From a bacterium (GTDB lineage Bacteria > Patescibacteriota > Saccharimonadia > CAILAD01 > GCA-016700035), in contig JADZGC010000004.1 of assembly GCA_020854115.1 (NCBI GenBank), forward strand, positions 65,665-129,664: 64,000 bases of DNA, written 5' to 3'. Shown in pieces: positions 2,003 through 33,947 of the stretch; position 1 is the first letter of the stretch; each line of letters begins with the position of its first letter. Under the pieces are notes generated by a model. It was not told the DNA's origin, ran no database searches, and saw only the letters and a list, made by a program, of their open reading frames with translations. The position numbers and the translations under genes were made by a program.

Positions 2003-3007
2003 ATGATGAGACTACATAAGAAGCTGGAGAGTCTATCTACAGCTGCTAAAAAAATGATAGCGAGTGCTGATTCTGTAGAAGCGCTTGAAAAAGCGCGAGT
2101 CCAGTTACTGGGCAAGAAGAGTGAATTGGCTAGTATATTATCGCAATTGCCTGACTTGCCAATGCGAGAGCGCAAAGAAATCGGGGCGTTGGCTAATCAG
2201 CTGAGGGCAGACCTAGAGCTGGCCATCGAGCTGCGTACACAGAAGCTTATTGACTCTGTAGATGATGCCTTAAGTTCAATCGATATCTCCGCGCCAGGGG
2301 AGTTGCATATCGTCGAGCCGGGGCACATACATCCAACGCAAGCCATACTCTCCGATATCTATGATATTTTCTTGCGGCTGGGGTTTGCAGTTGCTGATGG
2401 TCCCGAGATTGAGACTGACTGGTACAACTTCGAAGTACTGAATATGCCAGCGGATCATCCTGCGCGCGAGATGCAAGATACTTTCTATATCGAGAGTGAC
2501 GGTAAGCACCCGCCACTTGTGCCGCGCACCCATACGTCTGCCTCCCAGATTCGCTATATGGAGCAAAATGAGCCGCCATTTAAGGTCATTGTGCCGGGTA
2601 GGGTGTACCGTAACGAAGACGAGGACAGAACTCATATTTGGAGCTTTTATCAGGTAGAGGGATTGGTGGTTGGTGAAGGAGTCAGTATGGCCGATCTAAA
2701 GGGGACACTCTTGCATGTCATGAAGGAGTTGTTTGGTCCGCAGACAAAAGTTCGTTTTAGGCCAAGTTATTTCCCATATACAGAGCCATCTGTCGAGATA
2801 GATGTCTGGTATCAAGAATCCTGGCTTGAATTATGTGGGGGGGGTATGGTGCATCCAGAGGTATTACGTCAGGGGGGGATAGATCCAGAGAGGTACTCTG
2901 GCTTTGCTTTTGGGTTTGGGGCTGATCGATTAAGTTTTATTCGTTATGGTCTTCAAGATATACGCGTATTGTGGCGACCTAATCTCTTGATAAGTAAACA
3001 AGTATGA
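2003..3007 (+). CDS. pheS: Phenylalanyl-tRNA synthetase alpha subunit
   Basis: 334 aa; class II aaRS core (FRPSYFPYTEPS, GFAFGFGADRL); stop TGA overlaps pheT ATG (ATGA). Confidence 0.95.
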   Translation: MMRLHKKLESLSTAAKKMIASADSVEALEKARVQLLGKKSELASILSQLPDLPMRERKEIGALANQLRADLELAIELRTQKLIDSVDDALSSIDISAPGELHIVEPGHIHPTQAILSDIYDIFLRLGFAVADGPEIETDWYNFEVLNMPADHPAREMQDTFYIESDGKHPPLVPRTHTSASQIRYMEQNEPPFKVIVPGRVYRNEDEDRTHIWSFYQVEGLVVGEGVSMADLKGTLLHVMKELFGPQTKVRFRPSYFPYTEPSVEIDVWYQESWLELCGGGMVHPEVLRQGGIDPERYSGFAFGFGADRLSFIRYGLQDIRVLWRPNLLISKQV

Positions 3008-5853
3008 AGATAGCTGTCGAAACAATCAATCGATACTTCAAGAAACCTCTATCTACAGATAGAATGGTGAGTTTAATTGAGCGCACAGAAATCGAAGTCG
3101 AAGAAATTTTGTATGCGAATAGGCTTGATCCAAAAATTATCTTAGCTAAAGTTCTGGATGTGTTTCCGCATCCTAATGCAGATCGACTACGACTAGTAGA
3201 TATAGAATATGGTGCGAAGCGACCAACGCGTGTAGTGTGCGGTGCTCCAAATGTAGCAGTCGGGCAGCGCGTAGCCTGGGTGCGACCCGGAGCTACGCTA
3301 CCGGACGGTACGCAGATTGACCAGGCAGTCATTCGCGGTGAGAAAAGCGCAGGAATGCTAGCTAGCGCCAAGGAATTAAGCATATCGGATGACCATTCTG
3401 GAATCGTCGTGCTTGATGAAGTAACCCACTCGCTTGGAACATCATTGTGCGACATTGTATTTTCGACTGACGTCCTGGATGTGAAGACGCCTGCGAACAG
3501 GTGGGATTACCTTAGCGGGGAGGGGATAGCACGTGAGCTGTCTGCATATGATCAGTCAATTCAGCTCCTTTTGCCAGAGCGAGGGGAATATACTTATCAA
3601 GACACCGATGTCGCGAAAGTCAAGGTTAGGGAAGAGAATAAGCGGTTTCTCAGTGCTCGCTTGCGATTAAAGAACGATGTCAAAACACCATCATGGCTTG
3701 TGGATAACTTGCTCGCGAACGGATTTGTGCCACATAATCCAGTCGTCGATATTACGAATTTTGTGATGCTAGAAACCGGACAGCCATCCCATGCCTATGA
3801 TGCGAATAAAGTCCGCGGTCCCCTTACTGTGCGTTTTGCAAAGAGCGGTGAAAAACTTACAACACTTGATGATGTGCATCGTACGCTCATGGATCAGGAT
3901 CTTGTGGTATGTGATGATTCAGGTCCGATCGGACTGGCTGGCGTGATTGGTGGCGCATCGACTCAAATTGACGCCACATCAACAGAAATAATTCTCGAAG
4001 CAGCGCATTGGGATAAGACTCTAGTACGCCGATCATCCATTCGACATGGTATTAGAACGGAAGCCTCGGCTCGCTTTGAGCGCAATCTCCCACTCCCCTT
4101 GCAGCCTTACGCATTTGCGCGCTTACTTGATTTGCTGATCGACATTTGTGGCGCAGAGATTATCGAAGGACCTTTTGACCAATTGCATGCCTGGCCGTGG
4201 CGACGTTTCTTGGGAGTTCGGTTGCGCCGTGCGGAACAATACTTGGGGATGCGGCTAAAGGAAGCGGAGATGGTCAGAGGTTTACGTAGACTTGGATTTG
4301 CTGCGCATCACTTTTCTCTCTCGGCCGAGCTGAAGTCACATCTTGGTAAGCCGTATAAATGGGGCGCAAATTTCCGTCAGGATGGTGAAGAAGCCTTTGA
4401 CTGCTCATACCTGGTAGATCGTTTGTATTCGAAGCTCGGTGTAGCCGTCGGACATACTGCCTTAGGTCAGCTACATCACGGTGAAGAAGTTGACTCAAAT
4501 GATGCATTAAGACCTGGTGACGTTGTGTTTTATGAGGGCAAAATTGAGAATTCTCACACCGACCACTATTACAAGACATTGCCAGATGGCTCGAAGCAGA
4601 AAGTAGTACTCAAGTCACCGGTACGTGTCGGACATAATGGTATATATCTCGGCAACAACCAGGTTATACATGCAGCCATATATAAATTTCGCAATGGGAA
4701 GTGGGTGAAGCGTCGACAGCAAGGGGTGATCATCTCTCCCCTGTCTGAGTTTGTTGATAATCCTGGCTACATCGGTGCGCGTCGCTATATTTCGAGCTTT
4801 AATCATATTATTGCGATCGAAGTCCCCTGGTGGCGAACAGACATTACATCAGAGACTGATATCTTCGAAGAAATGGCAAAGCTAGCGGGGTATGAAAAAT
4901 TGCCAGAAAGCCTACCGCAATTGCCACCTATGCCCGGCACAGCTCAGTCACAACAGGTTGAGAACATGCGGATTCGGCATGGCCTAGTACGCCAAGGTGC
5001 AATCGAGATAAATAGCTACAGCTTTATTTCCGAAGCGGATGTAAAATTGAGTCAAATACCAGAATCTCAAGTATTACGGATAGCGAATCCACGCTCTCCA
5101 GAGCAAGCGTTCGTACGTTCATCAATGCTAGCGAGTCATGCACGATTTTGGGCAAAGCAGTCGGCGCGTGCATCGTCGCTTGGCGCATTCGAGATCTCAC
5201 GTGTGTATGAGGCACAAGGGCTTGTCAAGCAGCCGAAAGAATCTTGGCGCCTGGCGATTAGTGCGCCTGGCGAGCAAGCTCTTCAAAACGTTCAAGGATT
5301 GCTCCATTCCGTGCTGTCAGATATGCGGGCTCAGGTGACGTTTCGGGCTGGTAGGCACGACGCAGACTCGATCAGAGGATTATCTGTGTATGTGCCGCAG
5401 CGCAGCGCCGGTTTGTTCGTCGGCTCGGAGTGGGCTGGTGTGATTGGCCAGCTACGCACTTCAGTACGACGAGGCTTCTCGTTGTCTGCTGATCTAGCGT
5501 ATGCAGAGGTGCTTATTGAGCTACTGGGATCAAGTCCTCGTCCGTATCCGATTAGGGCACTACCGCCCTATCAGCTCGTCACACGTGATATCTCGCTTGA
5601 GGTACCGGTGGGTGTTTGGTGGCAGGAGATTCGAGGCGCACTGCAGTCGGATAAGCATGTGTGGCAGGTGGAGTATCGAGAAAATTATTCGGATAGCATG
5701 CTACAAAAATCAGATAGACGAGTAGTGACCGTGCGACTGTGGCTAGATCTTGGTGCTCAACCAAGCCTTGATCAAATTGACAAGTCGGTGCAACGGGCGG
5801 TCAAGGGTCTTCAGATCCAGCTGAAACAAGCTGGTAAAATCAGCGTTCGATAG
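3004..5853 (+). CDS. pheT: Phenylalanyl-tRNA synthetase beta subunit, 949 aa, carrying an inserted NlpC/P60 domain
   Basis: N-terminal tRNA-binding (Myf) domain (VVCGAPNVAVGQRV...GEKSAGMLAS), B3/B4, B5 (LGVRLRRAEQYLGMRL..), C-terminal FDX-ACB region; about 150 aa longer than typical PheT. Confidence 0.95.
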   Translation: MKIAVETINRYFKKPLSTDRMVSLIERTEIEVEEILYANRLDPKIILAKVLDVFPHPNADRLRLVDIEYGAKRPTRVVCGAPNVAVGQRVAWVRPGATLPDGTQIDQAVIRGEKSAGMLASAKELSISDDHSGIVVLDEVTHSLGTSLCDIVFSTDVLDVKTPANRWDYLSGEGIARELSAYDQSIQLLLPERGEYTYQDTDVAKVKVREENKRFLSARLRLKNDVKTPSWLVDNLLANGFVPHNPVVDITNFVMLETGQPSHAYDANKVRGPLTVRFAKSGEKLTTLDDVHRTLMDQDLVVCDDSGPIGLAGVIGGASTQIDATSTEIILEAAHWDKTLVRRSSIRHGIRTEASARFERNLPLPLQPYAFARLLDLLIDICGAEIIEGPFDQLHAWPWRRFLGVRLRRAEQYLGMRLKEAEMVRGLRRLGFAAHHFSLSAELKSHLGKPYKWGANFRQDGEEAFDCSYLVDRLYSKLGVAVGHTALGQLHHGEEVDSNDALRPGDVVFYEGKIENSHTDHYYKTLPDGSKQKVVLKSPVRVGHNGIYLGNNQVIHAAIYKFRNGKWVKRRQQGVIISPLSEFVDNPGYIGARRYISSFNHIIAIEVPWWRTDITSETDIFEEMAKLAGYEKLPESLPQLPPMPGTAQSQQVENMRIRHGLVRQGAIEINSYSFISEADVKLSQIPESQVLRIANPRSPEQAFVRSSMLASHARFWAKQSARASSLGAFEISRVYEAQGLVKQPKESWRLAISAPGEQALQNVQGLLHSVLSDMRAQVTFRAGRHDADSIRGLSVYVPQRSAGLFVGSEWAGVIGQLRTSVRRGFSLSADLAYAEVLIELLGSSPRPYPIRALPPYQLVTRDISLEVPVGVWWQEIRGALQSDKHVWQVEYRENYSDSMLQKSDRRVVTVRLWLDLGAQPSLDQIDKSVQRAVKGLQIQLKQAGKISVR
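4340..4800 (+). other. NlpC/P60 papain-like cysteine hydrolase domain embedded in PheT (B5 region)
   Basis: GKPYKWGAN...FDCSYLV (Cys), RPGDVVFY, GHNGIYLGNNQVIHAA (His, His), QGVIISPLSEF...YIGARRY aligns motif-for-motif with Spr/MepS-type NlpC/P60. Confidence 0.8.
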
Positions 5854-5935: not shown

Positions 5936-7435
5936 GTGACGGCGACAAGTCAATATAACCGCACGCAGCGTGTCACGCACGCTCATCGATTTGCCCTTCC
6001 TCGGCGGCTGTCAAAGTCTGGGCAAGCACCGAGCAAAACGGCTCGAGTGCTATTTCTGTTGCTCGCTCCGTTATTCATGTTTTTGCTCCTCAACTCCATG
6101 GCGGCAGCCTACACAGAAGGAGTGATGTATCCGGGCGTCTCAATTGCCGGCGTGAATGTATCGGGTTTAACAAAACAGCAGGCGTACACAAAGCTACAAG
6201 CCTTACCACTCGGCCGGTCATATACGATCAAGATCGACGATAAAGTATTCAAAACCACAAATGATGCACTTGGCGCGCGTTATGACTTAGACCGCACGGT
6301 CAATCTAGCGTATTCGTATGGGCGCGATACAAGTTTGCCGCTAGTTGGCCTGATGCGAATTTCTACCGAGAAGTCGCAGCTGAATCTGGCCTATGAGCTT
6401 GATTACAGGCGGCTTCAGAAATTTACCAACCAAGTGGTAGAAACAATTGGCACTCCCCCGAAGAATGCCGCCGTGGTTGTCGAGAATGGTGACATTAAGA
6501 CTGTCCCGGATGCGCCAGGGGTTGGCCTCGATCGTACGGCAGTTACGCGCCTGCTAGCTGATTCGATGGCGGGGGTAAAGGATGCAACTTTTGTGCTGGC
6601 GCCCGAAACGGTACCGGCTGATATTCAGTTGCCACAGACCGAGCCGGCAAAAGAAGAAGTAGCTAGCTACCTCAGTCTCAAGTATGACTTAGTATATGAA
6701 TCCCGACGCTTCATCCCTACCCCAGCAGAGATGGGGTATTGGGTACAGGTTGTACCTGATCGAGAGATTAATGCCTCACAATTGGTTGTCAGAATCAGTG
6801 AGCAGGAAGTACGTGGCTACATGCAGTCGGTTGCGAATCAGATAAACAAGAATCCGGTCAATAAGAAGGTGATTGTCGCGAACGGAAACTCTTCGGTCGA
6901 GCGAGAAGGGCAAGATGGCATCGCCTTAAATCAAGAAGCGGCAGTGCGTGATCTGATGGCTGCCTTGGCTGGTAAGCGAGGGGCAACCATTACACTGAGC
7001 ACTAGCCCTATCCCCTACAAGACCGAGACTACACGCACCGTTAGCTTAGATGCTCCAAAATATATTGAGATCAATCTCTCGTTGCAGCGACTTTGGGCGT
7101 ATGAAAACGGTCAAATGGTCTACTCGAGCCCGATTACCAGTGGGGCAACTGGGGCAGGGCTCGGTACGGTGACAGGATTATTCGCAATCTACTATAAGAC
7201 CACAAACACCTATCTCAATGGTCGATCGTATGGCTATAACTATAATGTGCACGTCAATTATTGGATGCCGTTCTATCTGGGGTATGGATTGCACGATGCA
7301 GCGTGGCGTTCCAGCTTTGGTGGGTCTGATTATTACTATAATGGTTCGCATGGGTGCGTTAATTTACCTGACGCGACGGCAACATTTATATACGCCTGGT
7401 CGGAGGTTGGGACCCCGGTGTGGGTACACAACTAG
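5936..7435 (+). CDS. L,D-transpeptidase (YkuD domain) with VanW-like N-terminal region and N-terminal TM (GTG start)
   Basis: C-terminal YkuD catalytic motif NGSHGCVNLP; N-terminal TM LFLLLAPLFMFLLL; central region resembles VanW-family. Confidence 0.8.
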   Translation: MTATSQYNRTQRVTHAHRFALPRRLSKSGQAPSKTARVLFLLLAPLFMFLLLNSMAAAYTEGVMYPGVSIAGVNVSGLTKQQAYTKLQALPLGRSYTIKIDDKVFKTTNDALGARYDLDRTVNLAYSYGRDTSLPLVGLMRISTEKSQLNLAYELDYRRLQKFTNQVVETIGTPPKNAAVVVENGDIKTVPDAPGVGLDRTAVTRLLADSMAGVKDATFVLAPETVPADIQLPQTEPAKEEVASYLSLKYDLVYESRRFIPTPAEMGYWVQVVPDREINASQLVVRISEQEVRGYMQSVANQINKNPVNKKVIVANGNSSVEREGQDGIALNQEAAVRDLMAALAGKRGATITLSTSPIPYKTETTRTVSLDAPKYIEINLSLQRLWAYENGQMVYSSPITSGATGAGLGTVTGLFAIYYKTTNTYLNGRSYGYNYNVHVNYWMPFYLGYGLHDAAWRSSFGGSDYYYNGSHGCVNLPDATATFIYAWSEVGTPVWVHN

Positions 7436-7462: not shown

Positions 7463-7849
7463 ATGCAGTCGACTCAATCCCAATTAGAATTAAGGCCGGT
7501 CGAAGGATCGGCGGAGCGGCAAGGGATGGGCCTTGAGCGATCGACCGAACTGGTGCCGGCTGCGGTAGAGCAGCAGGCGACCCCCCCATCTACGTCGCAC
7601 AATGTTGTCGCTGGAGATCAGGCAGCTACATCTGCCACAGAGAATGCAGCGGAAGTGACGCCGGTCCCCGTCACGTCTCCCCTGTCTGCTATGGACGACG
7701 ATAATATCGAGCCGCAATGGGTAGATGCAGTGGATCGTATTGTTGACGAGAACGGGAATGATCCACGTCAACAAGAAGAGGCTGCTGAGGACCTGAGCCA
7801 AAAATATCTCAAAGAACGTTTTGGGATTGATGTAAAAGAGGCGAGTTAG
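7463..7849 (+). CDS. Hypothetical acidic protein
   Basis: 128 aa, D/E-rich, no recognisable motif; immediately upstream of ATPase gene. Confidence 0.45.
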   Translation: MQSTQSQLELRPVEGSAERQGMGLERSTELVPAAVEQQATPPSTSHNVVAGDQAATSATENAAEVTPVPVTSPLSAMDDDNIEPQWVDAVDRIVDENGNDPRQQEEAAEDLSQKYLKERFGIDVKEAS

Positions 7850-7853
7850 TCGG

Positions 7854-10376
7854 ATGAGCGAATTTGCAAGTCTCATTCTTCTCGTCATGTTGGTTGTCAT
7901 GTTGGGTGTCGGTGGTGTTGTATTCTGGATTGTGCGCCGCCGCTTGCAGCACGCTAAGGACATCGAGCGCAGCCTTAAGATGGTGCCATTACTCCTAAAG
8001 TTACCTCCGGCCGAGGAAGATGAGAGTCAGCGTGATGAGCGTGAGAAAATCAAAGAAAATGTCTCACGTGCTGAGGGCATATACACGCTGCTTTCAGGTA
8101 TCGCCACAAATCGTCGTTGGCTGTATTCTCAGCGGCATATATCTTTTGAGATCGTGGCCCATGGCGAGCAGATCTACTTCTATGTTGCGGTGCCGGTTGC
8201 GCTTGTAACTTCTGTCGAAAAGGCTCTGGTCGCGGCCTATCCGACCATACAGATTATCCCAGCCGAGGATCACAACATCTTCTCTGAGACGGGCAAGATA
8301 GCGACTATTACAGGTGGGGAGATGCACCTGACTGGAGACTCATTTTATCCCTTGCAGACCTATAAGACGTTGGAATTCGACCCTTTAGCGGGCATGCTAT
8401 CAGCATTGACGCGCCTGAAACCTGATGAGGGTGTGGTAGTGCAAGTGATGTTTCGGCCGGCCAATCCGAAGTGGGTCATCAAGGCTCGCGAGTTCGCCAA
8501 GGGGCTCTTGAATCCGCAGCGAGCAAAAATGCATGATCCGATGCATATAGCGGCATCGGTGGCACGAGCCCCATTTGGTTCACCTGACTGGCAGGCTAAA
8601 GAACAGATGCAAGACCCATCGAAACAGGCCGATTCGATTGACCAGAAGTTGGCTCAAGCAGTTGAGGAAAAGGCGGCCCAGCCGGCCTTTGAAACGCTTA
8701 TCCGAATTGTGACGAGCTCGGATGATTTTGGTCGTAGTAAACTGCTCTTACAGGATGTCGTGAATGGCTTTGCACAGTTTGCACTACCAGGTAGTAATAG
8801 CTTTCAATTCGTCGCCGATCCATCACAGCAGCAGCTTGCGACCGACTTGATTTTTCGATTCTTCCCGGCGCAAAAAAAGAAAGTGATCCTAAATAGCTCG
8901 GAGCTCGCGACGCTATTCCATTTGCCGAGCAGTCATTCAGAGCTGGCTGCGCCACTTGAACGCAAGGGCCTTAAGGAGGTTGCTTCACCTGCGGACTTGC
9001 CGGACGCCGGGATTGTCCTGGGAAGCAACTTCTTCCAGGGCAAGGAAAAGGTCGTTCGGCTTACGGATAAGGATCGCACACGCCACATGTACATTCTTGG
9101 TCAGACCGGTACCGGTAAGTCTGTCTTGCTTGGCGATATGATTGTGCAGGATATGATGGCCGGGAAGGGCTTGTGCTTTATTGACCCGCATGGTGAGGTG
9201 GCTGAAGAAATTATTGCTAAGGTTCCGCCGCATCGAGCTGAGGATGTGATTTACTTCAATCCAGCCGATATGGCTATGCCGCTCGGAATGAATATCTTAG
9301 AAACTGATCCGGCGCATCCAGAACAAAAAGACTTTGTGATTCAAGAAACGTTGGCGATGCTCTATAAGATGTATGACCCAAATAACCAGGGTTTTATCGG
9401 CCCGCGCTTTGAGCAGTGGTATCGTAATGCGGCTCTGACGGTAATGGCTGACCCGGCTGGGGCGACCTTCCTTGAGATCCCCAAGCCGTTCTTGGACGAT
9501 GACTTTTTGAAGGCGAAATTCAAATATGTGACAGATCCGACAGTGCAAGACTTTTGGATTAATGAAATGGGTCAAACCTCTGAACGCGATAAGAGCGAGA
9601 TGCTTGGCTACTTTGTATCAAAGTGGGGCGCCTTCCAGTCAAACGAAACGATGCGCAATATTATGGGGCAGCATCAGAGTGCGTTTGATTTTGGCAAGGT
9701 GATGGATGAGGGCAAGATCCTGATTGTCAATCTCTCGAAGGGCCAAGTCGGTGAGCTGAATGCAAAATATCTTGGGATGATTTTCGTGATCAAAGTGCTT
9801 GCTGCAGCCTTCGCTCGCTCAGGCAGGCCAAAAGATCAAATGCCGCTCTTTACACTCTACGTCGATGAGTTTCAAAACTTCGCTACTGAGTCATTTGCAA
9901 CGATTCTGTCTGAAGCCCGTAAGTACAACCTGTGTCTTGTCGTGGCAAACCAGTTTATTGGTCAGTTGACCGATGAGATTAAGGGTGCGGTATTTGGCAA
10001 CGTTGGTACGCTTTTCACTTATCGCTGTGGGCCAGATGATGCTGAATATCTAGAGAAGCAGTTCCTGCCAAGCTTTGATAAGACTGACCTCGTCAATATG
10101 CCAAACCTCTTGGGTGCGGTGAAGTTGATGGCAAATGGGTTGCCGACGAAGCCTTTTACGCTCAAGCCGATCTTCCCGCCCATAGGAGGATATGGTGATG
10201 CGAATGTGGCGCTGAATGTGAAAGAGCTGTCGCGCAATAAGTATGGTCGACCAAAGGAGGAAGTAGCTAAGGAGGTAGCAGCTGCGCTGACGATGCGTGA
10301 TGAGCCAAGGCCAAGTAGTGCACCAGCTCCCGCCGAGCAAGCTTCAGTACCAGCTGGTTCTCAGTCAGCACAGTAA
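7854..10376 (+). CDS. Membrane-anchored P-loop ATPase, VirD4/TraG/TraD-like (coupling-protein / HerA-FtsK superfamily)
   Basis: N-terminal TM (LILLVMLVVMLGVGGVVFWIV); Walker A ILGQTGTGKSVLL; Walker B-like LFTLYVDEFQNF; 840 aa. Confidence 0.6.
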   Translation: MSEFASLILLVMLVVMLGVGGVVFWIVRRRLQHAKDIERSLKMVPLLLKLPPAEEDESQRDEREKIKENVSRAEGIYTLLSGIATNRRWLYSQRHISFEIVAHGEQIYFYVAVPVALVTSVEKALVAAYPTIQIIPAEDHNIFSETGKIATITGGEMHLTGDSFYPLQTYKTLEFDPLAGMLSALTRLKPDEGVVVQVMFRPANPKWVIKAREFAKGLLNPQRAKMHDPMHIAASVARAPFGSPDWQAKEQMQDPSKQADSIDQKLAQAVEEKAAQPAFETLIRIVTSSDDFGRSKLLLQDVVNGFAQFALPGSNSFQFVADPSQQQLATDLIFRFFPAQKKKVILNSSELATLFHLPSSHSELAAPLERKGLKEVASPADLPDAGIVLGSNFFQGKEKVVRLTDKDRTRHMYILGQTGTGKSVLLGDMIVQDMMAGKGLCFIDPHGEVAEEIIAKVPPHRAEDVIYFNPADMAMPLGMNILETDPAHPEQKDFVIQETLAMLYKMYDPNNQGFIGPRFEQWYRNAALTVMADPAGATFLEIPKPFLDDDFLKAKFKYVTDPTVQDFWINEMGQTSERDKSEMLGYFVSKWGAFQSNETMRNIMGQHQSAFDFGKVMDEGKILIVNLSKGQVGELNAKYLGMIFVIKVLAAAFARSGRPKDQMPLFTLYVDEFQNFATESFATILSEARKYNLCLVVANQFIGQLTDEIKGAVFGNVGTLFTYRCGPDDAEYLEKQFLPSFDKTDLVNMPNLLGAVKLMANGLPTKPFTLKPIFPPIGGYGDANVALNVKELSRNKYGRPKEEVAKEVAAALTMRDEPRPSSAPAPAEQASVPAGSQSAQ

Positions 10377-13424: not shown

Positions 13425-14275
13425 CCGCTCTGGACGAGGTCGATCCAGGCTGGCGGAAGCAATATATTCGTCGTCTTGGACTTAGTAGAACAAGTTACTA
13501 CGTTCGTCCGACCAAACAAGCTAGTCTCGACAACCAAGCTGTTGCTGAGCTTCAAGCAGTTCATGAGGTGCATCCATTCTACGGTGTTGACCGTTTGAGC
13601 ATGCATCTCGGCTGGAACAAGAAGAAAACCAGGCGGATTCGTGACTTAGCTGGTGTGGTCATCCCCACTCCTGTCAAAAAGCGTCGAGGCAACAAATCTA
13701 GCAAAGCAGAAATTAACGCTCCACTCAATATCTTGCAACGCTATGCCAAGTTCAAAGATGAGCTCAGACCGCAAGACGGCATGGACTACATGGGCATGGT
13801 GGATGCCCATGCCTGGGTGCAGGACTTTACCTATCTGTGGCTTAGTAAAAACACGCACCACTTGGCTGTAGTTTTAGATCTCAAAACTAGGCAGGTTGTT
13901 GGTTGGCGACTTGGTCTGCGTCACTCCAGTGAGCTAACCCACGAAGCCCTACTTGATGCTCTGAGTAAGCACGATAGTCCAGCTATCTTACATAGCGACC
14001 AAGGAAGTGAATATCTGAGCTACAAACACCAGGACTTATGCGCCAAGATGGAGATTCTACTCAGCGCCAGCAACAAATCTAGTCCGTGGCAAAACGGCTT
14101 CATGGAGCGTTGGTTTGGAGGCTTCAAGCGTGAAATGGGAAACCTTAGTCAGTACAAAGATTTAGCCCAACTTCATGAAGCAATTGCCATGCATATTTAT
14201 TACTATAACCACAAACGCATCCACACGGCATTAGGCATGAGTCTAGCAGCTTACGCTGCTAGCCTCAAAACCTAG
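13403..14275 (+). CDS. IS3 OrfB transposase (DDE integrase core); frame opens 13403, first ATG 13568
   Basis: HSDQGSEY, NGFMERWF, YNHKRIH motifs; -1 frame relative to orfA; candidate slip sites A_AAA_AAA 13352-13358 (followed by stops in -1 frame) and A_AAA_G 13415-13419 in the 21-nt overlap. Confidence 0.8.
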   Translation, partial: DTTPKRLAALDEVDPGWRKQYIRRLGLSRTSYYVRPTKQASLDNQAVAELQAVHEVHPFYGVDRLSMHLGWNKKKTRRIRDLAGVVIPTPVKKRRGNKSSKAEINAPLNILQRYAKFKDELRPQDGMDYMGMVDAHAWVQDFTYLWLSKNTHHLAVVLDLKTRQVVGWRLGLRHSSELTHEALLDALSKHDSPAILHSDQGSEYLSYKHQDLCAKMEILLSASNKSSPWQNGFMERWFGGFKREMGNLSQYKDLAQLHEAIAMHIYYYNHKRIHTALGMSLAAYAASLKT

Positions 14276-20802: not shown

Positions 20803-20929
20803 AACTTAAAAAAGTTTTAAAGTTGTTTTGTATTCGTCTAGATGACAGGATTACATGCATTTCGAGTCTTCACTGTTGGCTCGAAAGCATTCCAAGATAA
20901 CAGTGAAATGATTCTTTGAATCATTTGTG

Positions 20930-22456
<1,527 letters not shown>

Positions 22457-23452: not shown

Positions 23453-24526
23453 CGTATAGAACTCAGGACCTTTGCAACATTTCAGCAGGCGTCAGTAACT
23501 GCAAGCCTAAGTGTACGCGCTTAGTGTTGTAGTAGTCGAGATACGTCGTAAGCTTATCTCGCTGGCACTTAAGCGACACACTCCTGTTCCAGTAGTAGCC
23601 AATACATTCGGTTTGGATGGTGCGGTTAAATCGCTTAATGTGAGCGTTGTCATTCGGTCGGTGCAGCCGACTGTGTCTAGTAGCAATGCCATGAGACCGC
23701 ATTACTTGCTCAAAATAGCGTCCGTACTCCGGCCCATTGTCAGCTTGTATCATAGTCACTCTAAAGCCCCAACTGTCTTGAGCTTCCAGTACAGCTTGAG
23801 CCGCTCGTCCCGGACTCAGCTTTGCCGCCAGGGTAACGTAAGCCATTCGGCTGAATAAGTCTATGACTGTGTAGTAGTACAGTCTCCTACCGCTACGGGG
23901 GTCAACATGGTGGATGGTATCCGTCTCAACTAATTCACCTGGTCTCACGGCATATGGACGATGAGGGTTATCTCGTTTGAGTCGTGGCTTCCTGGCACCA
24001 TCAAAGCAGTGATGACGCCGCAGAATACGACGCACACTGCTGAGGCTAAGTCTTACTCCAAGAGTGTTTGTTACGTAATACCAGACAATCTCAGCACAAC
24101 GCATTAACTTAGCCCGGGCAGCTAGAACGAGCCTGACTGTCGCCCCGGGAATAGCATTAGGACAAGTATGCGGCCTAGAGCTTAGTGTAGCGATTCGCCA
24201 GCTACAAGCAGTTAGCTTGTGAGCTAGGCTAACCGATCGGCTAGGCCGGTTAGGGTTGTCAAATTGGACATATCGGTTAAGCTTGTCCCATTTGCGTTTC
24301 CAGCGCCAGATGGTTGAGCGATGAACACCACACTTTCTTGCGACAACAGCCAGAGGTTGTTGGTCTTCGACCAGTAACCGCATAGCGGTTGCTCTGGCAC
24401 TAGGTAAGTTAGGGTTGATAGAATAAGCCATGGTAGGCTCCTTTCTTATTAGTTGTTGATACTAACAGTTTAGGACGCCTACCTTTTTTAGTTCAATTTA
24501 GGTTGCAAAGGTCTTGAGTTACTACG
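23453..24526 (-). mobile_element. IS481-family insertion sequence (1074 bp) with imperfect ~26-bp terminal IRs and perfect 6-bp target-site duplication AAAACA
   Basis: IRL cgtatagaactcaggacctttgcaac (23453-23478) vs IRR-rc cgtagtaactcaagacctttgcaac (24502-24526); flanking aaaaca at 23447-23452 and 24527-24532. Confidence 0.85.
23463..24431 (-). CDS. IS481-family DDE transposase (integrase core domain)
   Basis: 322 aa; ETDTIH, IQADNGPEY, RPNDNAHIKRFNRTIQ, N-terminal HTH (VARKCGVHRSTIWRWKRKW). Confidence 0.9.
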   Translation of the reverse strand: MAYSINPNLPSARATAMRLLVEDQQPLAVVARKCGVHRSTIWRWKRKWDKLNRYVQFDNPNRPSRSVSLAHKLTACSWRIATLSSRPHTCPNAIPGATVRLVLAARAKLMRCAEIVWYYVTNTLGVRLSLSSVRRILRRHHCFDGARKPRLKRDNPHRPYAVRPGELVETDTIHHVDPRSGRRLYYYTVIDLFSRMAYVTLAAKLSPGRAAQAVLEAQDSWGFRVTMIQADNGPEYGRYFEQVMRSHGIATRHSRLHRPNDNAHIKRFNRTIQTECIGYYWNRSVSLKCQRDKLTTYLDYYNTKRVHLGLQLLTPAEMLQRS

Positions 24527-25451: not shown

Positions 25452-25528
25452 TGGTGGGCTTGGCAGGACTCGAACCTGCGACCTCGTCATTATCAGTGAC
25501 GCGCTCTAACCAGCTGAGCTACAAGCCC
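25452..25528 (-). tRNA. tRNA-Ile (anticodon GAU), CCA encoded
   Basis: Minus-strand cloverleaf gggcttgtagctcagctggttagagcgcgtcaCTGATAAtgacgaggtcgcaggttcgagtcctgccaagcccacca. Confidence 0.9.
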
Positions 25529-25561
25529 ACAATATATGGAAGGTTTAATCGATAGATATCA

Positions 25562-25638
25562 TGGTGGAGCATATCGGATTCGAACCGATGACCCCCTGCT
25601 TGCAAAGCAGGTGCTCTAGCCAGCTGAGCTAATGCCCC
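25562..25638 (-). tRNA. tRNA-Ala (anticodon UGC) with G3:U70 identity pair, CCA encoded
   Basis: ggggcattagctcagctggctagagcacctgcTTTGCAAgcagggggtcatcggttcgaatccgatatgctccacca. Confidence 0.9.
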
Positions 25639-30584: not shown

Positions 30585-30596
30585 AAACGAGAAAAA

Positions 30597-33780
<3,184 letters not shown>

Positions 33781-33947
33781 TTCTTTGCGTGACATTGTGT
33801 GATGAATTCGTTCTTCATACAAGTCACAGCATGAGACGGCTAACACGCTCTTGAAGAGTGTTGTCGAAATAAGTCACGTTTGTATCTTATTCTCTATGTG
33901 TGCCAATGAGCATCGATCTGGTAGCTTTGATTTACATTGAGGAGACA

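Follow-up and report, generated by a model that had tools for sequence, protein, structure and literature searches.

We report that pheT, the gene for the phenylalanyl-tRNA synthetase (PheRS) beta subunit, almost certainly carries in a Patescibacteriota genome of the class Saccharimonadia a genuine NlpC/P60 (MEROPS C40) cysteine peptidase domain, nested at the tip of the hairpin of its B5 domain. The gene lies in the 64,000-nucleotide (nt) stretch of DNA analysed here, called the window (contig JADZGC010000004.1, positions 65,665 to 129,664), and its product has 949 amino acids (aa), of which 168 (aa 434-601) form the insert.

The NLPC_P60 profile of Pfam (PF00877) matches aa 448-521 with an E value of 2.1e-13 and 50.6 bits, compared with a gathering score of 23. 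The NCBIfam RipC and p60 models match the insert in part, and a sequence search of the PDB with the insert returned NlpC/P60 hydrolases (best E 6e-10). Halves of B5 flank the domain on both sides, as had been claimed in an earlier reading of this DNA made from the letters alone (the sequence-only reading). The borders given there, about aa 446-600, were roughly right, and the alignments place them slightly wider: those with solved PheT chains halt at residue 433 and restart at 602, an interval over which the S. haemolyticus chain moves just from 443 to 450, and the E. coli PheT alignment breaks at the same place. The 168 residues stand in place of a B5 beta-hairpin turn of about 6 residues. 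The Pfam check that had been proposed for the whole protein gave NLPC_P60 above its gathering score, a weak FDX-ACB match and B5 (PF03484) by its C-terminal half only (model positions 38-67 of 67, at aa 601-630).

All of the NlpC/P60 motifs quoted in the sequence-only reading are present, and the catalytic residues are intact, as it had stated: in alignments, the catalytic residues of the solved enzymes 8v3w, 7cfl, 6biq and 4xcm fall on Cys467, His544 and His556. Their order, Cys, His and then a third polar residue, is that of a non-permuted NlpC/P60 domain. The permuted LRAT and YaeF/YiiX C92 families were ruled out because Cys467 precedes His544; a C92 match stays below threshold (24.9 bits vs 27) and covers aa 524-597 only. 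For the insert, Pfam and NCBIfam gave NlpC/P60-type matches only, with none to YbaK/ProX, AlaX, DTD or free B3/4 domains.

An AlphaFold2 (AF2) model of aa 396-640, comprising B5 and the insert and built from a 30-sequence alignment, has a predicted local distance difference test score (pLDDT) of 91.4 and a predicted template modelling score (pTM) of 0.87. In this model the two halves of B5, one a strand-helix-helix-strand unit (E6-11, H12-19, H25-34 and E38-42 in model numbering) and the other a strand and a helix (E207-212, H222-233), bracket a compact alpha+beta domain. When compared with the PDB using Foldseek, the 50 best matches were all NlpC/P60 proteins, with a probability of 1.00 and target-normalised template modelling (TM) scores up to 0.84, and included C. 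difficile Acd24020, MepS/Spr, Trichomonas NlpC, LytE and SagA. The model thus bears out the expectation that the insert folds as an independent domain, and it strongly supports a structurally autonomous papain-like alpha+beta domain.

The NlpC/P60 D,L-endopeptidases (Acd24020, 7cfl; E. coli MepS/Spr, 7v6u, 8xud and 2k1g; B. subtilis LytE and CwlO; E. faecium SagA) have the same fold as the insert (target TM 0.7-0.84), the same motif order (PYxWG, FDCS, GDxxF, HxGxYxG, xxH), the same triad and the same S1 signature, which is described below. These enzymes are either secreted or made as lipoproteins, and they occur alone or joined to modules that target the wall (LysM, SH3b or coiled coil). The PheT insert, in contrast, has neither a signal peptide nor a targeting domain and is nested in a cytoplasmic aminoacyl-tRNA synthetase (aaRS). 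It differs from the solved enzymes also in a loop ahead of Cys467 that is longer by 4 residues, and, in this lineage, in a 27-aa beta-hairpin sub-insertion (aa 515-541) located between the GDVVFY strand and the strand of the catalytic His (predicted strands E124-130 and E136-145 in the AF2 model).

An artefact (a chimeric assembly or a fusion by frameshift) or a selfish element (an intein-like or mobile insertion of no use to the cell) might be suspected on two grounds: the DNA comes from a metagenome-assembled genome (MAG), and nested domains of essential genes are sometimes inteins. We give this explanation practically no credence. The reading frame runs unbroken through the insert, the G+C content at third codon positions (GC3) is 0.452 in the insert vs 0.453 in the remainder of pheT, and the NCBI protein MCC7543209.1, encoded on a 136-kb contig, is 100% identical to the window PheT, with near-identical proteins on further independent contigs. 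Together these observations exclude a chimeric assembly or a frameshift, either of which the sequence-only reading had named as a possible refutation. The same junctions, moreover, recur in hundreds of proteins that were assembled independently of one another and belong to many lineages. Pfam found no Hint, intein or LAGLIDADG homing-endonuclease match in PheT, and the junctions (...GFA/AHHF... and ...SFNH/IIAI...) lack the Cys, Ser or Thr +1 residues of splice sites. These features, together with the ameliorated composition and the strong conservation of the insert, led us to reject an intein or selfish element, so the selfish domain insertion that had been suggested earlier is disfavoured. 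Recent horizontal acquisition was likewise rejected, given the equal GC3 and the wide vertical distribution.

To describe the distribution we used two sets of clusters: group 1, the best 120 Saccharibacteria PheT clusters from a whole-protein search, and group 2, 120 Parcubacteria clusters. The group-1 proteins have 870-952 aa, except for three truncated entries (627-850 aa), with identities to the window protein down to 37-40%; their named members are Candidatus Saccharibacteria, and one match in a GTDB genome is a Saccharibacteria MAG. The insert, or a remnant of it, is found in all 120, and 111 have a recorded PF00877 match. At 90% identity, insert-bearing PheT proteins make up well over 200 clusters. 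An exhaustive profile search with B5 plus insert against 1.84 billion representatives gave 101 representatives (50% identity) at E <= 1e-30, mostly insert-bearing PheT. The best 150 matches comprise PheT proteins of Saccharibacteria type (910-973 aa); about 70 PheT representatives (750-845 aa) that lack B2/tRNA_bind but have the insert in the same place within B5; a few forms of 923-936 aa; and stand-alone proteins in which NlpC/P60 is repeated 3-11 times in tandem. Names given for the sources of the second class and its relatives include Parcubacteria, Paceibacterota, and Terry-, Lloyd-, Yonath-, Vogel- and Campbellbacteria, and one insert-bearing form of 965 aa is from Howlettbacteria. When a 227-aa fragment with the insert served as query in a word-indexed search, two weakly matching LysM-NlpC/P60 proteins were all that came back and even the near-identical PheT P0003 was missed, which reflects a limitation of the tool and not rarity.

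The tandem proteins (P0151, P0169, P0172, P0174, P0175, P0181 and others) are the best matches of the insert profile outside PheT. They usually have the catalytic Cys in one copy only and resemble arrays of pseudo-peptidase repeats.

Judging from these predicted proteins, the nested architecture is widespread in Patescibacteria/candidate phyla radiation (CPR) bacteria, and it is mostly misleadingly machine-annotated. NCBI names MCC7543209.1 'C40 family peptidase [bacterium]', and other insert-bearing PheT proteins appear as 'C40 family peptidase', 'NlpC/P60 family protein', 'phenylalanine--tRNA ligase beta subunit-related protein' or 'hypothetical protein'. The sequence-only reading had considered the insertion possibly lineage specific, and had itself taken a widespread and already annotated architecture as what would speak against this. 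Rarity fails on that ground, with the same architecture present in Saccharibacteria, Howlettbacteria and many Parcubacteria lineages, in more than 200 clusters. Full-text literature searches found no paper describing NlpC/P60 in PheT, and a survey of CPR protein families (PMC6744442) mentions PheRS in another context only; this nesting of two well-known families is apparently new and undescribed in the literature. Mis-annotation of the essential pheT could distort metabolic reconstructions and marker-gene estimates of completeness, and a conserved, apparently active peptidase nested in an essential aaRS is a candidate lineage-defining trait across large parts of the CPR.

Two further observations concern these relatives. 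One cluster (P0220) contains insert-bearing PheT fragments of bacterial type whose records give 'Candidatus Aenigmarchaeota archaeon' as the source (for example MCK4968484.1) and whose contigs span 1.4-3.2 kb, most likely because a CPR bacterium contaminated the binning of an archaeal MAG. At a Parcubacteria locus (L005, 3912-7409), PheS has only 250 aa and lacks the N-terminal coiled coil, a 110-aa open reading frame (ORF) lies between pheS and pheT, and PheT has lost B2/tRNA_bind yet keeps the peptidase insert. The absence of B2 from PheT and of the coiled coil from PheS sets Parcubacteria PheRS apart from the canonical enzyme.

The sequence strongly supports a PheRS beta subunit that, apart from the insert, is complete and functional. 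The window protein scores 491.4 bits with the equivalog model TIGR00472 pheT_bact (cutoff 402.65) and keeps the canonical Pfam order of tRNA_bind, B3_4, B5, the catalytic-like module (CLM) and a weak FDX-ACB domain (PF03147, 17.8 bits, under the 31.1 cutoff). The solved canonical subunits (T. thermophilus 1pys/2iy5, E. coli 3pco, S. haemolyticus 2rhs) have this same order, B1/B2, B3/4, B5, CLM and B8, and share with the window PheT the pheS-pheT operon and the editing residues; the window protein differs from them in having 168 residues for about 6 in the B5 hairpin and in its weak FDX-ACB match. The pheS stop overlaps the pheT start as ATGA, and pheT is translationally coupled to pheS, which is found immediately upstream of pheT also at the loci of three relatives (L003, L004 and L005). 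The B3/4 editing residues, mapped by pairwise alignment from E. coli N254, H265, E334, T354 and A356, are present as N252, H263 (nt 3790-3792), E332 (nt 3997-3999), T352 and A354. Among the 120 relatives, N252 and H263 are found in all, E332 and A354 in 115, and T352 as Thr or Ser in all 120; overall, conservation of the editing residues ranges from 104 to 120 of the 120. The equivalent of E. coli R244 is Val in the window PheT and Arg in 89/120 relatives.

The catalytic Cys and His of the insert are largely conserved in both groups. In Saccharibacteria the Cys is present in 108/120 clusters, the equivalent of His544 in 109/120 and the Cys+His dyad in 107/120. In Parcubacteria the insert occurs at the same site in 116/120 clusters, with Cys+His in all 116 and the third His in 114. 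The third triad residue varies in Saccharibacteria (Gln 36, His 22, Glu 19, Met 17, Thr 10, Asp 2). The 27-aa sub-insertion is specific to Saccharibacteria and is found in 69 group-1 clusters; in these proteins Met, Thr or Gln frequently takes the third triad position. It bears a conserved S-x-T-D-H-Y-Y motif plus G529 and L536, and D520, H521, Y522 and Y523 are kept in 55-61 of the 69. For the catalytic Saccharibacteria clusters, pairwise identity averages 0.52 in the insert and 0.47 in the rest of PheT (B3/4, 0.61; CLM, 0.36; FDX-ACB, 0.32), and the two identities are weakly correlated (Spearman 0.23). Purifying selection on the insert is strongly supported by this sequence conservation.

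A hidden Markov model (HMM) of the Saccharibacteria insert scores the Parcubacteria inserts at 51-106 bits vs 38-86 bits for the best stand-alone domains. The score ranges overlap, and a single origin of the inserts of both groups is therefore not proven by sequence. With site and boundaries identical, one ancient insertion is nevertheless the simplest explanation, and an old, compositionally ameliorated trait of many Patescibacteria/CPR lineages is strongly supported. In four close Parcubacteria relatives (612-669 aa, about 60% identical) an ordinary short hairpin occupies the insert site, which indicates that PheRS can exist without the insert. Intact, triad-relaxed, Cys-less and deleted inserts thus form a natural series on the gain, entrenchment and loss of a nested domain.

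What the insert does is less certain. With slightly less than even confidence, we propose from its sequence that it is a cytoplasmic gamma-D-glutamyl amidase of murein-peptide type, carried on PheRS and independent of aminoacylation. In this scheme the S1 pocket would bind the gamma-D-glutamyl moiety, and the domain would cleave gamma-D-Glu-diamino-acid bonds of murein-type stem peptides, which could come from turnover in the cell itself or from scavenging. Catalysis would follow the papain-like mechanism, in which His544 would activate the Cys467 thiolate, His556 would orient His544 and Tyr451 would stabilise the transition state. PheRS would be a mere abundant, constitutively expressed scaffold, and the peptidase would act apart from both aminoacylation and B3/4 editing. 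A moonlighting cell-wall-type amidase was one of three roles suggested in the sequence-only reading, the others being additional editing and a selfish insertion; it is the best supported of them, as a role that we infer.

The pocket speaks for this amidase. In YkfC numbering, the signature of the gamma-D-Glu S1 site of NlpC/P60 enzymes consists of Tyr226, Trp228, Asp237, Ser239 and a small residue at 257, together with the triad (Xu et al., PMC2954226); in that work Tyr226 is the Tyr of the transition state and Trp228 forms the hydrophobic wall of S1/S2. The whole signature is found in the window protein (Y451, W453, D466, S468, A486) and also in 98/107 catalytic group-1 inserts, with the Tyr and a hydrophobic residue at the Trp228 position in 107/107 each. 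Among the group-2 inserts the Tyr is found in 114/116, the Asp and the Ser in 113/116 each and the small residue in 115/116. Since the signature is kept in both groups, the pocket appears not to have been remodelled for a new substrate. Nor does the insert seem to substitute for a lost editing site, since the editing residues are conserved, and replacement of a decayed B3/4 site was rejected for that reason. The median isoelectric point (pI) of the insert is 8.9 in Saccharibacteria vs 6.3 in Parcubacteria, which argues against a conserved RNA-binding surface; a conserved nucleic-acid-binding surface is thus unsupported. Peptidoglycan genes are present in the window, with an L,D-transpeptidase gene (ldt) directly downstream of pheT and genes for UppS and FtsW, and the organism is predicted to make peptidoglycan. 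Finally, there is a precedent in the YkfC of Chlamydia, a cytoplasmic NlpC/P60 enzyme of murein-peptide recycling in a bacterium with a reduced genome (PMC9928106). Taken together, the S1 signature, the intact editing site, the charge pattern, the peptidoglycan genes and the Chlamydia precedent make a murein-peptide amidase the best explanation, and a nested domain of this kind in Patescibacteria would bear on cytoplasmic murein-peptide processing in ultra-small epibionts and on any tie of it to translation.

The insert is related to YkfC only in part. The YkfC enzymes of B. cereus (PMC2954226) and Chlamydia trachomatis (PMC9928106) are likewise cytoplasmic NlpC/P60 proteins acting on peptidoglycan-derived peptides, and they share the catalytic and S1 residues with the insert, but they carry two SH3b domains and an Asp256/Tyr118 pair for the free L-Ala amine, neither of which is found in the PheT insert. 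The position of YkfC Asp256 is Thr485 here, with Thr, Gln or Val in relatives and Met or Ile in Parcubacteria, and most Saccharibacteria inserts have His in place of YkfC Arg255. The lack of the SH3b domains and of the Asp256/Tyr118 pair places the insert outside the YkfC subfamily.

Several points weigh against the proposed amidase. The insert has none of the YkfC determinants for free peptides that were looked for, neither SH3b (by Pfam) nor Asp256, and the equivalent of Trp228 is non-hydrophobic in about 30% of the Parcubacteria inserts. An unrestricted cytoplasmic enzyme of this specificity might attack UDP-MurNAc-peptide precursors and would be harmful unless controlled. At the loci examined we found no gene-context link to peptidoglycan recycling: the pheT-ldt order is kept at L003 and L004 (PheT 60% and 41% identical), not at the Parcubacteria locus L005, and an adjacency confined to Saccharibacteria and explicable by general synteny is weak evidence for a connection with peptidoglycan. 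The persistence of the domain inside PheT over very long evolutionary distances is not accounted for by a mere scaffold. Met or Thr takes the third place of the triad in 27/107 Saccharibacteria clusters, and 13/120 have lost the Cys and/or the His while retaining a folded remnant.

These last two points leave room for a mainly non-catalytic module, structural, binding or regulatory, that would recognise murein peptides or a partner protein or stabilise B5, the catalytic residues being largely a legacy. We regard it as somewhat unlikely. Most of the 13 have deleted the PYxWG...FDCS segment, leaving a remnant of 100-120 aa, and this retention suggests a non-catalytic value or structural entrenchment. 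A Cys-less remnant is predicted to fold (pLDDT 85.7) and matches NlpC/P60 structures, among them the non-catalytic RipD, although the input alignment included catalytic homologues and may have biased the model toward this fold. M. tuberculosis RipD (4jxb/4lj1) does resemble the 13 Cys-less Saccharibacteria remnants, whereas the window protein has the full triad. G505-D506 and R594 are invariant even in the remnants, and the pTM of the AF2 model suggests a fixed orientation of B5 and insert; both would suit such a module, as would the relaxed third residue. On the other hand, Cys+His is kept in nearly all group-1 clusters and in every group-2 insert, and the near-invariance of the Tyr, Asp, Ser and small-residue signature across proteins that are about 45% identical is hard to explain without selection on catalysis. 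The clean loss of the insert from some Parcubacteria also indicates that B5 does not need it.

The fusion itself keeps alive a role directed at tRNA, in which the thiol domain would attack the ester of aminoacyl-, N-acyl-aminoacyl- or peptidyl-tRNA and either hydrolyse it, as an extra proofreading, deacylase or Pth-like activity, or transfer the acyl group through a Cys467 thioester, for example to a cell-wall precursor. We consider this role unlikely, although physical fusion with an aaRS is a classic hint of a functional link and the architecture is kept over very long evolutionary distances. Precedents exist: in mycobacterial LysX an aaRS is fused to an enzyme that consumes its aminoacyl-tRNA product. 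Papain-fold relatives of NlpC/P60 such as LRAT process esters through thioester intermediates, and this chemistry, like the basic character of the group-1 insert, would suit a tRNA ester as substrate. Glutathionylspermidine synthetase/amidase has a CHAP thiol amidase fused N-terminally to an ATP-dependent ligase, with both activities on the same metabolite; as here, a thiol amidase and an ATP-dependent ligase share one polypeptide, but the fusion is N-terminal and not nested. Fungal ErdS (PMC13219428) is reported as an aaRS fused to an enzyme that uses aminoacyl-tRNA. Like LysX, it is a bifunctional synthetase polypeptide that joins translation machinery and envelope chemistry, as the PheT fusion would be. 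The partner domains of ErdS and LysX are DUF2156/MprF-type transferases fused end to end, in contrast to the PheT insert, which is a papain-fold peptidase domain nested in another domain.

A hydrolase embedded in a synthetase is also what the proofreading domains of aaRSs represent, namely the INS domain of ProRS (YbaK fold), CP1 of the class I enzymes and B3/4 of PheRS, with the B3/4 deacylase CtdA (PMC12449066) as a free counterpart. Those domains are unrelated to the insert in sequence and fold, do not use a catalytic thiol and are turned towards the tRNA 3' end, and here the resident B3/4 is intact, leaving no gap for a second tRNA hydrolase to fill. The gamma-D-Glu signature gives no sign of a remodelled pocket, the group-2 inserts are not basic, and the insert has no similarity to known deacylase families in Pfam or NCBIfam. 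B5 has no known contact with tRNA, and the insert is absent or catalytically dead in some lineages whose PheRS is otherwise similar. The additional editing or deacylase-like activity suggested in the sequence-only reading is thus disfavoured by the conserved B3/4 residues, the retained signature and the charge that is not conserved. A truly bifunctional Patescibacteria PheRS, with the nested thiol domain mechanistically coupled to the synthetase, seems highly improbable. In one version, the phenylalanyl group of tRNA or adenylate, or a non-cognate one, may pass to Cys467 as a thioester and then be hydrolysed or transferred, e.g. to a murein peptide; in the other, binding or cleavage of murein peptides may tune Phe-tRNA synthesis allosterically, and cell-wall turnover on the host surface would then be linked to the translation rate of the epibiont.

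If the insert is a hydrolase, as in the murein-peptide amidase that we favour, its substrate might still be another cytoplasmic gamma-glutamyl or acyl compound, for instance gamma-glutamyl amides, poly-gamma-glutamate-like compounds, host-derived peptides imported by the epibiont, or lipids. The S1 signature fixes a gamma-D-Glu-like moiety and not the groups that flank it, and the S' sites are poorly conserved across the NlpC/P60 family (PMC2954226). The S-x-T-D-H-Y-Y sub-insertion of Saccharibacteria, beside the catalytic-His strand, could reshape the cleft, and the replacement of Arg255 by His would also fit another substrate. Such a substrate is decidedly unlikely, however, with the closest relatives in sequence and structure all being peptidoglycan D,L-endopeptidases and the order of catalytic residues unpermuted, unlike that of the lipid-acting LRAT and YiiX families.

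Table. Positions in the window of pheS, pheT, the parts of the PheT protein and the downstream neighbour
Feature	Position	Strand	Basis
pheS (PheRS alpha subunit, 334 aa)	2003..3007	+	Pfam tRNA-synt_2d E 1.8e-93, Phe_tRNA-synt_N
pheT (PheRS beta subunit, 949 aa, nested peptidase domain)	3004..5853	+	ORF; TIGR00472
B2 / tRNA_bind (EMAP-like OB), aa 45-139	3136..3420	+	PF01588 E 1.3e-13
B3/B4 editing domain, aa 223-383	3670..4152	+	PF03483 E 8.7e-55
B5 N-terminal half, aa 400-433 (strand, two helices, first hairpin strand)	4201..4302	+	E. coli and S. haemolyticus B5 alignments
Nested NlpC/P60 (C40) cysteine peptidase domain, aa 434-601	4303..4806	+	PF00877; PDB sequence matches; AF2/Foldseek
Y451-K452-W453, counterparts of YkfC Tyr226 and Trp228	4354..4362	+	Signature from PMC2954226
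D466-C467-S468, nucleophile Cys467 between gamma-D-Glu-binding Asp and Ser	4399..4407	+	'FDCS' motif of solved enzymes
27-aa beta-hairpin sub-insertion, aa 515-541, ENSHTDHYYKTLPDGSKQKVVLKSPVR	4546..4626	+	Gap vs all solved NlpC/P60 enzymes
Catalytic His544	4633..4635	+	Aligns with catalytic His of 8v3w, 7cfl, 6biq
Third triad residue His556	4669..4671	+	Aligns with third His of solved enzymes
B5 C-terminal half, aa 602-632 (second hairpin strand, PWWR motif, helix)	4807..4899	+	PF03484 E 2.5e-13
Catalytic-like module CLM (B6/B7), aa 633-836	4900..5511	+	PF17759 E 2.4e-26
Probable B8 / FDX-ACB anticodon-binding domain, aa 855-937	5566..5814	+	PF03147 weak; aligns with B8 of 2rhs_B
L,D-transpeptidase (PG_binding_4 + YkuD), downstream neighbour of pheT, context only	5936..7435	+	Pfam

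Around the operon, a 147-aa predicted membrane ORF with no Pfam match lies upstream of pheS (1557-2000), and a 128-aa acidic low-complexity ORF (7463-7849), by position the likely counterpart of 134-aa ORFs at L003 and L004, separates ldt from the gene for an 840-aa VirD4/TraG/HerA-like ATPase (7854-10376; DUF87, weak T4SS-DNA_transf, DUF8128 in relatives). The ATPase gene is syntenic with pheT-ldt across Saccharibacteria (L003, 9973-12432; L004, 9640-12078) and is followed in the window by that of a PKD-domain protein.

Elsewhere in the window the rRNA genes are unlinked, with 16S at 20927-22454 and 23S at 30591-33785, about 8 kb apart. Between them lie genes for an rve integrase, a PrsW protease, a ferric-reductase-like protein, a dienelactone hydrolase and UppS, and two tRNAs on the minus strand (25455-25638), oppositely oriented. 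The 23S gene (3195 nt) has insertions at 30866-31132 and 32591-32659, which compared with E. coli rrlH correspond to about 250 extra nt after position ~270-287 (domain I) and 69 nt after ~1747; neither matched an Rfam intron family above threshold. Two rve-family integrase/transposase ORFs, at 13568-14275 (+) and 23463-24431 (-, with HTH_23), one of them directly beside the 16S gene, stand amid housekeeping genes of a small genome and are probably insertion sequence elements.

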